Shown here: positions 33,822 through 45,800 of the stretch, one piece after another
Layout of the letters: every line of letters starts with the position of its first letter
How positions within the stretch are numbered: position 1 is the first letter of the stretch
Assembly (NCBI GenBank): GCA_963842525.1
Contig: CAWJGT010000009.1
Coordinates: forward strand, 1,344,001-1,408,000
Direction: 5' to 3'
From: an uncultured Holophagales bacterium
Lineage (GTDB): Bacteria > Acidobacteriota > Thermoanaerobaculia > Multivoradales > UBA5704
DNA: 64,000 nucleotides
The notes under the pieces: generated by a model
What the model saw: only the letters and a program-made list of their open reading frames with translations
Told to the model about the DNA's origin: nothing
Database searches by the model: none
Made by a program: the position numbers and the translations under genes

Positions 33822-36800
33822 GCTGGAGCCGATGATCGGCTTCTTCGTCAACACCCTGGCGATGCGGGCCGACTTCGCCGGCGCGCCCAGCTTCCGCGGC
33901 CTGCTGGGGCGGACGCGCGAGGCAGCGTTGGGTGCCTTCTCGCACCAGCACCTCCCGTTCGAACAGAGTGGTGGAAGAGCTGCGGCCGGCGCGCGACCTG
34001 TCGCGGACACCGGTCTTCCAGGCGGTCTTCCAGCTCCAGAACACCGCGCCGCTGCCTGCAGCTCCCGGGGCTCGACCTGAGCCCGGTGCGCACCGGCACG
34101 CGGACCGCCAAATTCGATGCGGTGCTCAACCTGTTTGCCAGCGAGCTGGGCCTCTCGGGCTTCTGGATCTACAACACCGACCTGTTCGACCGCGCCACCC
34201 TGGAGCGGCTCACCGGCCATCTCCGGATGCTGATCGCGGGCGCGGCGGCCGAGCCCGACCGGCCGCTGGCCGAGGTGCCGCTCCTCTCCGCGGCCGAGCT
34301 GCGCCAGCTTCTGGTGGAGTGGAACCCAGGCCCGTCGCTGACCGCGGAGCCCGAACGGTTCACCCTCCACGAGCATTTCGCCGCCTGGGCCGCGGCCACG
34401 CCGGGCGCGCCCGCCGTCAGCTTCGACGGCGTGACGCTGACCTACGCCGAGCTGAGCCTGCGGGCCAACCGTATCGCGCATTTCCTGATCAACGCGGGTG
34501 TGCGCCCGGGTGACCTCGTGGGCCTCTACCTCGACCGTTCGCCGGCGCTGGTGGCCGCGATCCTCGGCGTGCTCAAGGCCGGGGCCAGTTACCTGCCGCT
34601 CGATCCGGTCTATCCGGCCGAGCGGGTCGCCTTCGCGCTCGCAGACAGCCGGGTCGCGGTCCTCCTCACCCAGGAGAGCCTGGCCGGCAACCTGCCGAGG
34701 GACGGCGCCTGGGTGCTGCGGCTCGACGCCGATGCCCACCTGTTCGCCCTGGAGAGCGGCGACGACCCGCGCGTCGAGGTCCCGCCGGGCTTCCCGGCCT
34801 ATGTCATCTACACCTCGGGCTCGACGGGTAAGCCCAAGGGCGTGATGGTGACGCACGAGAACGTCGCCCGCCTCTTCACGGCGACGGACGGGTGGTACGG
34901 CTTCGGCCCCGACGACGTCTGGACGCTGTTCCACTCGTACGCCTTCGACTTCTCGGTCTGGGAGCTGTGGGGTGCGCTCCTCTACGGCGGCCGGCTGGTG
35001 GTGGTGCCGTACTGGGTGAGCCGCTCGCCCGAGGCGTTCTGCGAGTTGCTGCGCAGCGAGCAGGTGACGGTGCTCAGCCAGACGCCGTCGGCATTCCGGC
35101 AGGTGATCTGGGCCGAAGAAGCCACGCGAGGACAGAAGCTGGCGTTGCGTTTCGTGGTCTTCGGCGGCGAGGCGCTGGAGCTGGCGAGCCTGCGGCCGTG
35201 GCTCGACCGGCACGGCGACGAGAAGCCGCGGCTGGTCAACATGTACGGCATCACCGAGACCACGGTGCACGTCACCTATCGGGAGATCCGGCGGGCCGAC
35301 GTGGAGGCGGGCACCGGGAGCGTCATCGGCCGCCCGATCCCGGACCTCTCGGTCCACCTGCTCGACGCCGCGGGCCAGCTCGTGCCGGTCGGGGTCCCTG
35401 GCGAGATCCATGTCGGCGGCGCCGGCGTGACGGCCGGTTACCTGGGCCGGCCGGAGCTGACGGCGCAACGCTTTGTGCCCGATCCGTTCGCGGGAAAGCC
35501 GGGAGCACGGCTCTATCGCAGCGGCGACCTGGCGCGGCGGCTGTCAGACGGAGATCTGGAGTACCTGGGCCGCATCGATCACCAGGTGAAAATCCGCGGT
35601 TTCCGCATCGAGCTGGGGGAGATCGAGACGGCGGTCGCTTCCTTCCCGGGCGTGCGCGAGACCGTCGTGCTCGTGCGCGACCAACGATTGCTCGCCTACG
35701 TCGTAGCTGATCCCGCTCCGTCTCTCCACGACGTGCGCGAGGCGCTCGGCCGCGGCCTGCCCGACTACATGCTGCCCTCCGCCCTGGTCGTGCTGGACGC
35801 GCTGCCGCTCACCGCCAACGGCAAGGTGGACCGCCGCGCCTTGCCCGATCTGGAGGTGGACCGTGCGGACCGCGGGTTCGTCGAGCCTTCGACCGTGGTG
35901 GAGAAGCTGCTGGCGCGCCTCTTCCGCGAGGTTCTGAAGGTCGACCGCGCCGGCATCCACGACGACTTCTTCGAGCTGGGCGGCAGCTCGATCACCGGCG
36001 CCGTGCTGATCAACCGGCTCCAGCAGGAGCTGGGCGAGATCGTCCAGGTGGTGGTGATCTTCGACGCGCCGACCGTCGCGCAGCTCGCCGGCTATCTGAA
36101 GGCGGAGCACCCGGCGGCGCTGGTGCGGCTGTTCGGCGCCGAGGCGGGCGTCGATCTGCCTGCCGCGGGCTCGGAGTCGCGCGTGGACGCGGTCCGGGTG
36201 GCCGAGATGTGCGCCCTGATCCAGCCGCTGCCAGCCGCGCCCATCGCAGAGAAAAACCCGCCCGCGGTCTTCGTGCTCTCGGCGCCGCGCTCGGGCTCGA
36301 CCCTGCTGCGGGTCATGCTGGGCGGCCATCCCGGCCTCTTCGCGCCGCCCGAGCTGGAGCTGCTCTCCTTCAACACCATGGCGGAGCGGCGGGCCGAGTT
36401 CTCCGGCCGCGACAGCTTCTGGCTGGAGGGGCTGATCCGCGGCGTCATGGAGGTCCGCGGCTGGGGGCCGGATGAAGCGCGCGAGCACCTGGAGGCCTGG
36501 GAGCGCGACGGCCTGTCCACCCACGAGGCCTATGGCCGCCTCCAGGAGTGGCTCGACGGGCGCATCCTCGTGGACAAGACGCCGTCCTACGCCCTCGATC
36601 CGGCGATCCTGCGGCGGGCCGAGGAGAGCTTCGACGGTGCGAAGTACGTCCACCTCCTGCGCCATCCCCACGGCATGATCCGCTCCTTCGAGGAGGCGAA
36701 GCTCGACCAGATCTTCTTCCGCCGCGAGCATCCATTTTCGCGGCGCGAGCTGGCCGAGCTGATCTGGCTGGTCAGCGAGCAGAACATCGTCGAGTTCCTG

Positions 36801-42800: not shown

Positions 42801-45800
42801 GCGGCTCTATAAGAGCGGCGACCTCGCGCGCTATCTCCCGGACGGCGCCGTCGACTTCCTGGGCCGTATCGATCACCAGGTCAAGGTGCGCGGGCTGCGC
42901 ATCGAGCTGGGTGAGATCGAGGCTGCGCTGGCGAAGCACCCGGCGATCCGCGAAGCCGTGGTGCTTGCCCGCGCGGGCGGCAGCGCGGTGGGCGATGTCA
43001 ACCTCGTGGCCTACATCACGGTCCGTGAAGGCCAGCCCGAGCCCTCCCTGGCCGAGCTGAGGTCGCTGCTGGGCAAAGATCTGCCCGACTACATGGTCCC
43101 TGTTGTCCTTGTGGTCCTTGATGTCCTTCCGCTCTCCCCCAACGGCAAGGCCGACCGCAAAGCCCTGGCGCAGCTCGCGCCCGAGCGGACCACCGCCCCC
43201 GAGGAGCAGGTGGCGCCGCGCAGCGAAGTGGAGCGCTTCCTCGCCCGCCTCTGGAGCGAGGTGCTGCGCAGCGAAGGCTTCGGCGTCCACGACAGGTTCT
43301 TCGAGCTTGGCGGCAACTCGATCACCGGCGCAATCTTCATCAACCGCCTCCAGCAGGAGCTGGGAGAGATCGTCCATGTGGTCACGATCTTCGACCAGCC
43401 GACGATCGCCGGTCTGGCCGCCTTCCTGACTGCCGAGTATCCGCGGGCCCTGGAACGGCTCTTCGGTGCCTTGGGAGAGACCCGGGCGGAGGCCGTGAAG
43501 AGGGTCGACGAGGCCGTGATCGCGGAGGTCGACCGGCTCGTCCGCAAGCTCGGCCCGCTGCCGCAGGAGATCGCGGCGCAGCCGAAGGGCTCCACGGCGG
43601 TCTTCGTGCTCTCGCCGCCGCGCTCGGGCTCGACTCTGCTGCGCGTCATGCTCGCCGGCCATCCACTGCTCTTCGCGCCGCCCGAGCTGGAGCTGCTCAA
43701 TTTCGACACGCTCGCGGAACGCCGCGACGCCTTCCCGGGCCGCGACGCTTTCCGCCTGGAAGGCCTGCTGCGTGCCGTCATGGAAGCCCGCCGTTGCAGC
43801 CCCGACGAGGCCCGCACTCTGGTCGATGCGATGGAGGCCGAGGGCGCTTCGACGCGTGCGATGTACCGCCTGCTCGGGGAACAGATCGGCGAGCGGACCC
43901 TGGTGGACAAGACGCCGACCTATGCCTGGGACCCGCAGACGCTCGCTCGCGCCGAGGCCGGGTTTGCCAACGCGCGCTATCTGCACCTGGTCCGCCATCC
44001 GCTCGGGATGGTCAAGTCCTTCGAAGAGGCGCGGATCGATCAGATTTTCTTCCATGAGGACCATACCTTCAGCCGCCGCGAGGTGGCCGAAGCGCTGTGG
44101 GTGCTGGCGCAACGCAATACGCTCGATTTCCTGGCGGCCGTGCCGGCCGCGCGCAAGCACACGGTCGTGTTCGAGGAGCTGCTGGGCGATCCGGAGCGGG
44201 TGCTGCGCGGGATCTGCGACTTCCTTGGGATCACGTACCACCCGGACATGGCCGAGCCGTACCAGAAGAAGTCGTCGCGGATGACGGACGGCCTGCACGA
44301 CGAGTCCCGCATGCTGGGTGACGTCAAGTTCCACCAGCACGGCCGCGTCGAGTCCACGGTCGCGGAGAAGTGGCGCGAGGCGTACAGCGAGGAGAGCCTG
44401 GGCGAGCCGGCGCGCACGATGGCGGTCCGGCTCGGGTACGAGCTGCAAGGCTTCGTCCCGATCCCGCGGCTCGGCACGACGCCGGGGACTCCGTTGCCGG
44501 TGGCCTTCTCGCAGGAGCGGCTCTGGTTCCTCGACCAGCTCGATCCCGGGCAGTCGACCTACAACGTCCCGGCTGCTCTGCGTCTGCTCGGCCGGCTCGA
44601 CGTGACTGCTCTCGCCGGCGCCCTGGGCGAGGTGGTGCGCCGGCACGGCTCGCTGCGCACGACGTTCGCCGAGGGGGATGGCCGGCCGGTGCAGATCGTG
44701 GCGGCGGCGGTTCCGCGCCTCCTGCCGGTCGTCGATCTGTCAGGTTTGCCGGAGGAGCTGCGCGGCGACGAGGCGCACCGCCGGATCTCCTTGGAGATTG
44801 GCCGGCCGTTCAACCTCGGCCGTGGACCGCTGATCCGCGCTCTGCTCCTCAAGCTCTCCGGCGACGAGCATGCCGCGGCCCTGACGATGCATCACATTGC
44901 CAGCGACGGCTGGTCGATGTCGCTGCTGATCCGCGAAGTGGAAGCGCTCTACGAGGCCTTTGCGCAGGGGCGGCCTTCGCCTTTGGCCGAGCTGCCGATC
45001 CAGTACGCCGACTTCGCGGTCTGGCAGCGCGGCTGGCTGCAAGGCGCGCGGCTGGAGCAGGAGATCGCCTGGTGGCGGCAGCGCCTCGCGGGCGTGGCAC
45101 CTCTCGACCTGCCGACCGACCGGCCGCGTCCGCCGGCACAGACGTTCCGCGGCGCCAATGTGCCGTTCCCGATCGACGGTGGTTTGAGCGATGCGGTGGC
45201 CGGGCTCGCACGGCGCGAGGGTGCCACCCTCTTCATGACGGCCATGGCGGCCTTCGTCGTCCTGCTGCGCCGCTATGCCGGCCAGGATGACGTGTCGGTG
45301 GGAACGCCGAGCGCCAACCGCACGCGGCGCGAGATCGAGGATCTGATCGGGTTCTTCGTCAATACGCTGGTCGTCCGCACGGACGCTGCGGGCGATCCGG
45401 GCTTCCGGGGTCTGCTCGGCCGTGTGCGCGAGGCTTCGGTGGGGGCCTTCGCGCACCAGGAGGTGCCGTTCGAAAAGGTGGTGGAGGAGCTGCGGCCGGA
45501 GCGTGATCTTTCCCGTCCGCCGCTGTTCCAGGTGATGTTCATCCTGCAGAATGCCCGCTTCGAGCCGCTGGAGCTGCCGGGCCTGACGCTGGCACCGCAG
45601 GACTTCGAAACCACCACGGCCAAGCTCGATCTGACGCTGTTCCTCTTCGAGAATCCGCAGGGGCTCTCCGGTGCCATCGAGCTCAACACCGACCTCTTCG
45701 ACCGCTCGACGATCGAGCGCATGGCCCGGCACTTCCAGGTGCTGCTCGCCGGTGCCACGGCCGATCCCGCGGCGCGGATCTCCGAGCTGCCGCTGCTGAC

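Follow-up and report, generated by a model that had tools for sequence, protein, structure and literature searches.

We analyzed a stretch of 64,000 nucleotides (the window) from an uncultured Holophagales bacterium (positions 1,344,001 to 1,408,000 of contig CAWJGT010000009.1, assembly GCA_963842525.1) and found two sulfotransferase (ST) domains, ST1 and ST2, built into elongation modules of a hybrid polyketide synthase-nonribosomal peptide synthetase (PKS-NRPS). Each ST sits between a peptidyl carrier protein (PCP) and the next condensation (C) domain, in a module whose adenylation (A) domain carries a Thr-like or a Ser-like specificity code, to give the arrangement C-A-PCP-ST-C. By family, fold, intact motifs, and module position, both are genuine sulfotransferases of the family of CurM and the olefin synthase (OLS). 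We tentatively read them, with rather less than even confidence, as in-line tailoring domains that would use 3'-phosphoadenosine 5'-phosphosulfate (PAPS) to sulfonate carrier-bound Thr and Ser, with the sulfate ester retained in the product.

Two sulfotransferase domains inside elongation modules

ST1 (36255..37115) and ST2 (43594..44448) are encoded on the + strand, are 61% identical to each other, and are each about 285 aa long and uninterrupted in the assembly. ST1, identified by PF13469, a match to PDB entry 4gbm, and a structural model, is preceded on the same strand by an A domain with the Thr-like code DFWSVGMVH (34377..35855; Pfam, code alignment, and domain map) and by a carrier that reads GGSSI instead of GGHSL (35886..36125; domain map and carrier comparison). 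It is followed by a C domain in which HHIVSDG is present (37173..38477, + strand; Pfam, motif, and domain map). The ST2 module, also on the + strand, consists of a C domain (40243..41544; domain map), an A domain with the Ser-like code DVWHISLVD (41611..43176; code alignment and domain map), a carrier of the same ST-associated subtype that reads GGNSI (43216..43452; domain map and carrier comparison), and ST2 itself (Pfam and alignment); the C domain after it carries HHIASDG (44494..45825; motif and domain map). The gap from the end of the PCP to the start of the ST measured 43 to 47 residues in the two modules.

The original prediction, made from the sequence alone, had placed two ST domains with PRSGSTLL, VDKTP, and HLxRHP..MxxS between a PCP and the next C domain, and had given no other module one. 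Pfam searches and the domain map confirmed both points: only the Thr- and Ser-coded modules of the window carry an ST, and the + strand of the window showed no further PRSGST motif or ST match besides ST1 and ST2.

Family, fold, and motifs of the ST domains

A profile search agreed with the assignment that had first been made from motifs. Pfam model PF13469 (Sulfotransfer_3; gathering cut-off 27 bits, one match per reading frame) matched ST1 over residues 726-938 of one frame, which begins at 34086 (E = 2.4e-27, 97.1 bits), and ST2 over residues 1507-1720 of another, which begins at 39082 (E = 6.8e-28, 98.8 bits). No NCBIfam model reached its cut-off on the PCP-ST region. When all PDB chains were searched with phmmer, the best matches were the CurM ST (4gbm, E = 8.6e-66) and the ST of the Synechococcus OLS (4gox, E = 8.6e-64) over about 290 residues, and the next match came only at 4e-06; matches of this strength and length mean that the ST identification is no chance match.

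The AlphaFold2 model of ST1, built on 13 relatives, reached a mean predicted local distance difference test (pLDDT) score of 84 and a predicted template modeling (pTM) score of 0.86. It superposed on 4gbm with a template modeling (TM) score of 0.90 and on 4gox with 0.88, at 39% identity. Residues 233-243 formed the sole stretch with pLDDT below 50; the CurM ST is said to have a mobile active-site flap.

Both STs showed PRSGSTLL, VDKTP(S/T)Y, and HL(L/V)RHP..M..S, and thus hold the sulfotransferase signature of a 5'-phosphosulfate-loop-type PRSGST together with a 3'-phosphate-region HL(L/V)RHP..M..S. These two elements take part in PAPS binding in sulfotransferases generally. Among 267 related ST domains, drawn from 253 database proteins and this genome, PRSG[ST]T was kept in 255, [VI]DK[TS]P in 239, and PPELELL in 233. 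Three elements line up with CurM and were invariant in the 13-sequence alignment: PRSGST, the PPEL Glu, and the VDK(T/S)P Lys. We take the latter two to correspond to Glu60 and Lys133 of CurM. Two positions after this Glu, the residue is His in CurM, OLS, and the PKS-type relatives at loci L014 and L017 (PPELHLL) and Glu in both window STs (PPELELL). The conservation of PRSG[ST]T and [VI]DK[TS]P, cofactor and catalytic motifs, argues that these domains are probably active enzymes.

A dedicated carrier precedes the ST and ordinary domains follow it

We compared carriers by their scores against the pre-ST carrier of the window. Carriers before an ST (n = 235) had a median of 76.6 bits, compared with 33.8 bits for other carriers (n = 138), and GGHS[LI] was present in 6/235 of the former and 99/138 of the latter. 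A carrier was detectable within 100 residues upstream of 235/261 ST domains, and the rest were mostly cut proteins. On these comparisons, the carrier preceding an ST is a dedicated subtype.

The domain that follows was far more variable. Among the 267 ST domains, the ST was followed by a C domain in 129, by a thioesterase (TE)-sized tail in 102, by the end of a protein fragment in 29, and by something else in 7; in the species-representative loci (n = 94) the corresponding numbers were 75 C, 17 TE, and 2 cut. Internal and terminal states interchanged at least 11 times on supported branches of the ST tree, which was built from ST matches of 250 residues or more. The survey thus bore out the recurrence of the internal PCP-ST-C architecture that had been proposed as a module type, but the type is not exclusively internal, since the same PCP-ST cassette also stands before an ordinary TE.

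C domains after an ST (n = 105) were scattered. On a tree of 324 rows, made from C matches covering at least 380 of 435 query positions, they required 54 label changes, of which supported branches force no fewer than 29. Within this genome, the 7 C domains that follow an ST grouped with three further C domains that come after a carrier of this subtype with no ST between them. A dedicated dehydrating (modAA-type) partner in the downstream C position was therefore rejected as a general rule, because post-ST C domains are polyphyletic in the wide sample; the question was judged by a clade test among the C domains of the sample, without reference modAA sequences. The TE tail after the terminal ST of protein P0033 matched ordinary thioesterases of NRPS, PKS, and fatty acid synthase systems (best 4zxh, 2.9e-26), and the curacin/CurM TE was not among the 33 PDB matches listed. 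We likewise rejected the idea that the NRPS ST-TE is a copy of the decarboxylative ST-TE pair of CurM, as the TE sequence is ordinary and not CurM-like. A dedicated carrier combined with ordinary downstream C or TE domains suggests that the mobile unit is the PCP-ST cassette, placed ahead of whatever domain comes next. The same carrier subtype was found in the metagenomic protein P0108, an FkbH-PCP-ST protein (FkbH-like according to its source annotation) with an ST 64% identical to ST1.

Several carriers and STs departed from this arrangement. On contig C19, the frame 493537-509673 (region of L002) encodes A(Thr-like)-PCP-C-PCP-ST-C, in which the ST module has no A domain of its own, and in the same protein two Thr-like modules upstream have a carrier of the ST-associated subtype but no ST. 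A single ST may be shared by several carriers there, or STs may have been lost. A carrier of the ST subtype (60-74 bits) stood directly before a C domain, with no ST, in 9 cases from 8 database proteins (two in P0235 and one each in P0201, P0249, P0130, P0139, P0177, P0185, and P0119), and a tenth ended protein P0134. Protein P0012 (565 aa) has two tandem ST domains without a carrier, and P0174 reads A-PCP-ST, a second PCP, a second ST match, and then a TE.

Adenylation codes before ST domains

The nine-residue A codes were re-derived by alignment to positions fixed on the first module; specificity-code positions follow the GrsA numbering. The codes upstream of ST1 and ST2 came out as DFWSVGMVH and DVWHISLVD, matching the earlier readings as Thr and Ser, and each differs at 2 positions from a cited code, DFWNIGMVHK for threonine (in a passage of PMC4169593) and DVWHLSLIDK for serine (in a passage of PMC10634486).

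Six of the seven ST modules in this genome have their own A domain, with Thr-like codes in 3, Ser-like codes in 2, and DIWEITADD in 1. The seventh is a C-PCP-ST-C module whose nearest upstream A domain is Thr-like, so that Thr or Ser accounts for 6/7. The 274 complete A codes of the genome include 20 Thr-like and 20 Ser-like codes, and 35/40 of these Ser/Thr modules have no ST.

In the database proteins, the 173 codes before an ST were Thr (44), Ser (27), DGFFHGE-like (27), Tyr-like (16), DIWExTADD (10), and other (49), and the 133 codes not before an ST were Thr (8), Ser (6), Tyr (3), and other (116). The code classes are our own regular expressions, applied to codes with at most 3 gaps. Ser/Thr codes were therefore enriched before STs, at 71/173 compared with 14/133 elsewhere in the same proteins (odds ratio 5.9; Fisher p = 1.5e-9, an overstated value because the rows of the code table are related to each other). 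The DGFFHGE-like class was entirely terminal and fell in one ST clade; DIWExTADD is presumably a diaminobutyrate-type code. Species-representative loci showed a Ser/Thr code before 69/94 STs (Thr 37, Ser 32), with Tyr-like codes before 7, DGFFHGE-like codes before 2, DIWExTADD before 1, and other or partial codes before 11, of which 7 were fragments or near-variants of Thr/Ser codes; among the remaining STs, 3 had too little upstream sequence and 1 had no A domain.

The Ser/Thr bias that had been predicted for ST modules elsewhere is thus real, but exclusivity did not hold, given the Tyr-like, DIWExTADD-like, and DGFFHGE-like codes. Going by the codes, the rule is better put as mostly hydroxy amino acids, extending beyond Ser and Thr.

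ST modules occurred in runs at seven loci (L027, L028, L033, L035, L052, L058, and L066). Each of the 7 Tyr-coded ST modules in the species-representative loci has an ST module coded for Thr or Ser beside it, and three ST modules follow one another in L033. Most run-forming modules were found as neighbors of the ST on which the locus is centered, so ascertainment contributes to this pattern.

ST residues vary with the code of their own module

We aligned distinct ST sequences with matches of at least 780 bases and numbered residues by ST1, with residue 1 at 36255. Asp53 was present in 114/133 Ser/Thr-associated STs but in only 1/23 Tyr-associated STs, which have N, F, or Y there. Glu239, which lies within the low-confidence loop of the ST1 model, was present in 97/133 Ser/Thr-associated and 0/23 Tyr-associated STs, the latter having W, L, or V. 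The combination R56/T111/W114 was found in 25/57 Ser-associated and 0/76 Thr-associated STs. ST1 carries the Thr pattern (W56, S111, L114) and ST2 carries the Ser pattern (R56, T111, W114). Such co-variation would look like a substrate-tuned acceptor pocket, and the tracking of ST residues with the A code argues that each ST may act in cis on the residue that its own module has loaded.

Recurrence and distribution

The genome that contains the window encodes 7 ST domains, all in the order PCP-ST-C, within uninterrupted frames that measure 1887 to 8098 aa and are spread over four contigs. It is unusually rich in NRPS, with 274 complete A codes and 251 near-full-length C domains in 9.95 Mb. A word-indexed search of proteins of 500-2000 aa returned 1408 matches at E <= 0.001, and a scan of 1.84 billion cluster representatives returned 1186 proteins at E <= 1e-30, PKS-type STs included. 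Scanning one genome per prokaryotic species gave at least 598 pattern matches, of which at least 578 encode a relative. The best 79 of these at least 578 loci all come from metagenome-assembled genomes, and by title 74 belong to Acidobacteriota lineages (45 of Thermoanaerobaculia type), 3 to Chloroflexota, and 2 to an 'uncultured bacterium'.

An even sample of 401 genomes of the same phylum contained 5 with a match at E <= 1e-40, namely all three genomes of the window's family and two with domains 43-46% identical. Of the latter two, G101 (loci L014 and L017) has the PKS-like PPELHLL and G094 (locus L013) has PPELYLM. The module type is patchy yet abundant in particular uncultured lineages, and its occurrence in metagenome-assembled genomes may explain why the design has gone unstudied.

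Comparison with known assembly-line sulfotransferases

The closest known systems are CurM and OLS, in which an acyl carrier protein (ACP), an ST, and a TE off-load the chain of a type I PKS. They share with the window STs the family and the fold, the position directly behind a carrier, the PRSGST loop, the PPEL Glu, and the VDK Lys, and the presumed acceptor is likewise a hydroxyl beta to the carrier thioester. However, the CurM/OLS substrate is made by ketosynthase (KS) and ketoreductase (KR) domains, whereas that of the window STs is loaded by the A domain of an NRPS elongation module. The ST of CurM/OLS precedes a decarboxylating TE, whereas the window STs precede a C domain and their terminal NRPS relatives an ordinary NRPS TE. 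The NRPS-type STs also differ in reading PPELELL (233/267) instead of PPELHLL, and the window STs, unlike CurM/OLS, are preceded by an NRPS-type PCP subtype.

It had been assumed that assembly-line STs occur only terminally before a TE. This does not hold, because the loading modules of OciA and DysB carry an ST: a passage of PMC6520454 links the ST domain of DysB to the sulfated glyceric acid of dysinosin, and a passage of PMC2533009 states that oci operons (cyanopeptolin, OciA) carry the same S and glycerate-loading domains. Set beside the window STs by their description only and not by sequence, the OciA/DysB domains likewise lie behind a PCP in an NRPS and act on a carrier-bound beta-hydroxy acyl unit, but they belong to starter modules that use glycerate with an FkbH-like domain, whereas the window has mid-chain C-A-PCP-ST modules on amino acids, twice in one line.

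The original prediction also named SulM as the N-sulfonating domain of sulfazecin biosynthesis; this was mistaken, for a passage of PMC11298585 assigns the role to the free-standing SulN, which N-sulfonates diaminopropionate before TE-mediated beta-lactam closure. SulN resembles the proposed function of the window STs in the PAPS-dependent sulfonation of an NRPS-carrier-bound residue but differs in being free-standing, and AptB (allopeptimicin) is a free-standing ST too. Tyrosylprotein sulfotransferases (TPST1/2) were the next-best structural matches (TM 0.50-0.61), with sequence E values of about 3e-5 over the PAPS loop only. They O-sulfonate peptides with the sulfate kept, but at 18-21% identity they are only distantly related, and as free-standing Golgi enzymes they act on free peptides.

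Three kinds of system are thus known: the PKS ACP-ST-TE, the NRPS glycerate starter with an ST, and free-standing STs (SulN and AptB). In agreement with the claim that the internal module type is undescribed, neither C-A-PCP-ST-C nor an ST before an ordinary NRPS TE was found in a full-text literature search, which left subscription journals and supplements mostly outside it; the papers that came up dealt with SulM/SulN, cyanopeptolin, dysinosin, allopeptimicin, or PKS systems. The string 'sulfo' has no occurrence in a paper on coral-microbiome Acidobacteriota. The catalytic family and the concept of an ST acting on the assembly line have precedents; the novelty lies in the host module, the class of acceptor, the PPELELL signature, and the dedicated carrier subtype.

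Proposed function and fate of the sulfate

The host enzyme appears to be a PKS-NRPS lipopeptide synthetase of about 55 kb from an uncultured Acidobacteriota (Thermoanaerobaculia-like) bacterium. In the reading that we prefer, the A domain would load Thr or Ser onto the dedicated carrier, the ST would sulfonate the beta-hydroxyl of that bound residue with PAPS as donor, and the next, ordinary C domain would take the chain onward. The acceptor hydroxyl would lie beta to the thioester, the same position as that sulfonated by the CurM ST. Because the neighboring modules carry Gly-like codes, the predicted peptide stretch is Gly-Thr-Gly-Ser-Gly-Gly-Gly, with the Thr and the Ser contributed by the ST modules, and the preferred product would be a Gly-rich lipopeptide with O-sulfo-Thr and O-sulfo-Ser. 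We infer the acceptor atom, the timing (at the aminoacyl or the peptidyl stage), and the fate of the sulfate. An APS kinase is encoded on another contig of the genome, so PAPS can be made; a search of the window and of about 10 kb past the TE turned up no PAPS-supply genes, which is neutral for this reading.

Retention of the sulfate is slightly favored over its departure to give dehydrobutyrine (Dhb) and dehydroalanine (Dha), for three reasons. Post-ST C domains form no clade and the terminal-ST TE is ordinary. Tyr-coded ST modules exist, and an aryl sulfate cannot beta-eliminate. Finally, the architecture of P0108 mirrors the OciA/DysB loading modules linked to sulfated glyceric acid.

Several points weigh against sulfonation with retention. 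We know of no natural nonribosomal peptide with O-sulfo-Ser or O-sulfo-Thr. The A-domain specificities are code-based predictions, and about a quarter of pre-ST codes are neither Ser, Thr, Tyr, nor a nameable class, so the acceptor rule is incomplete. Our three ST samples favor STs most similar to ST1 and partly overlap, and a phylogenetically independent test of the residue/code co-variation had only 2 supported contrasts for Tyr and 6 for Ser versus Thr, too few for a p-value. There are several frameshifts in the assembled synthetase, and the line may not be expressed intact. Furthermore, CurM and OLS, the sole biochemically characterized close relatives, install sulfate as a leaving group, according to a passage of PMC11730487.

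This last point leads to the strongest alternative, which we regard as possible though somewhat doubtful: that the sulfate is a leaving group, expelled by loss of the alpha-proton to give Dhb or Dha, or displaced intramolecularly to close a ring. Elimination could be spontaneous at the thioester or helped by the catalytic His of the next C domain, and the product would be Gly-Dhb-Gly-Dha-Gly-Gly-Gly. The nearest characterized homologs are activating STs (CurM and OLS; the same passage of PMC11730487), the Ser/Thr hydroxyl lies beta to a thioester as in the CurM substrate, and the strong Ser/Thr enrichment suits residues that are commonly turned into Dha or Dhb. The absence of an ST from 35/40 Ser/Thr modules in the genome would also mean that an ST marks a special fate. 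However, no dedicated eliminating partner was apparent, with post-ST C domains scattered among ordinary C domains and a terminal-ST TE that is not CurM-like, and ST modules with Tyr-like codes (a hydrophobic pattern) and FkbH-PCP-ST proteins fit poorly unless their residues are beta-hydroxylated. The sulfated acyl-ACP of CurM is also reportedly stable until the TE acts, which counts against this alternative.

A different alternative concerns this copy only, namely that the domain type works in other lines but that here the cluster is decaying or not expressed and its frame changes are real mutations, so that the ST modules of the window would make nothing. Within the window, at least five of the frame changes lie inside domains. 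The C domain 32979-34313 is split into four pieces by changes near 33305, 33962, and 34047; the A domain 38535-39927 shifts near 39050, by one extra A in a run of A compared with three paralogous modules that are otherwise about 90% identical there; and the C domain 47593-48886 shifts near 48645, where the paralog alignment around 48650 is compatible with a one-base indel but not clean. Further frame changes fall at the domain junctions 48886-49029, 53672-53792, 55093-55206, and 56906-57100, and, past the end of the window, the match of one A domain is confined to the last third of the query. These changes, the single extra A, and the truncated A match would all suit decay. The public reads had little to add: one soil-metagenome run contained 0.06 of the sampled words, its contigs matched only in pieces of 86 to 208 bases, an identical piece among them ends at 39024, just before the 39050 shift, and no indels were reported. 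The public-run search listed no RNA run carrying the sequence.

On the other side, each domain resumes undamaged in the new frame with its core motifs complete, both STs retain all conserved motifs, and elsewhere in the genome five ST-bearing frames stay open over 2794 to 8098 aa. Decay of this copy therefore seems improbable to us. The frame changes are either consensus errors in near-repeated modules or very recent breakage of the cluster, and we suspect errors, because the domains are intact after each shift and the other ST-bearing frames in the genome are uninterrupted.

It is very unlikely that the STs act on some other acceptor (a hydroxyl or amine of the chain, a residue on a neighboring carrier, or a free small molecule), as might be read from pre-ST codes without an obvious hydroxyl such as the Leu-like DAWFLGNVV and DIWExTADD, from the one C-PCP-ST-C module in the genome that lacks its own A domain, and from ST-associated carriers that occur without an ST, because the ST is fused directly behind the carrier (235/261 detectable), its residues co-vary with its own A code, and the Ser/Thr enrichment is strong.

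The host assembly line and neighboring genes

The G+C content of the window is about 70%, and the host genome comprises 9.95 Mb in 34 contigs. Pfam and the domain map placed the hybrid PKS-NRPS on the + strand of the window from 18119 onward, in the order KS-acyltransferase (AT)-ACP, then C-A-PCP-KS-AT-KR-ACP, then a long series of C-A-PCP modules; the synthetase runs beyond the window and its C-TE end lies about 9.7 kb further on. All parts of the line are on the + strand. It starts with KS-AT-ACP (18119..21571; Pfam ketoacyl-synt, Acyl_transf_1, and PP-binding) and continues with C-A-PCP-KS-AT-KR-ACP (21423..29498; A code DALAAGCIY; Pfam and code alignment) and with a C-A-PCP module of Gly-like code NILQLGVIW, followed by the C domain in four frame pieces (29688..34313; Pfam and domain/frame map). 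Between the two ST modules lie an A domain with a Gly-like code and a PCP (38535..40200; domain map), in which the extra base near 39050 changes the reading frame partway through the A domain. After the C domain that follows ST2, the remaining modules in the window (45883..64000; Pfam and codes) have three Gly-like codes and then DTEDIGTIV, DLFNNALTY, and DASTVAAVC.

The Ser-coded A domain contains an insert of about 43 aa (41950-42078) that is rich in Pro, Gly, and acidic residues, lies ahead of core motif A3, and has no counterpart in the line's other A domains. At 56703-58977, an A-PCP pair comes after a PCP (56703-56906), at a frame change and with no C domain between them; the arrangement reflects either a deletion or a module without a C domain at a gene boundary.

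Past the window, a gene of the penicillin-amidase family (E = 1.2e-205; L103:9555-12440) directly follows the C-TE end of the synthetase, and after it come a large IgGFc-binding-domain protein and a small Ntox16 toxin-domain protein. Acylases trim N-acyl groups in other NRPS pathways, and by analogy this amidase could trim the N-acyl group off the lipopeptide.

Positions 3-6055 encode the end of a different NRPS, in which a luciferase-like monooxygenase interrupts an A domain, with an FkbM-type methyltransferase domain and a PCP behind it; the next gene encodes a separate FkbM methyltransferase. The arrangement is reminiscent of myxobacterial lines, in which monooxygenases embedded in A domains make terminal amides. 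Between the two NRPS clusters, the region 8357-13949 encodes a GAF-domain sigma-54 activator on the + strand and, on the - strand, a Ser/Thr protein kinase that has TPR repeats.

Implications

Whichever fate the sulfate has, a tailoring domain is added to the repertoire of NRPS elongation modules. To our knowledge, annotation tools for biosynthetic gene clusters do not draw this ST domain, and the predicted structures of these peptides would then be wrong at these positions. The PCP-ST cassette is compact, stands before either a C domain or a TE, and has switched position at least 11 times on the ST tree, so it seems portable and could be of use for engineering assembly lines.

If the sulfate is kept, the modules would make peptides with O-sulfo-Ser, O-sulfo-Thr, and possibly O-sulfo-Tyr, which as far as we know are essentially unknown among nonribosomal products. 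If it leaves, they would represent a new enzymatic logic for Dha and Dhb, residues whose origin is unresolved for many nonribosomal peptides. Such a route would parallel the phosphorylation and glutamylation used in lanthipeptides and the polyketide chemistry of CurM, and it would be an unrecognized path to Dha and Dhb that is widespread in uncultured Acidobacteriota.

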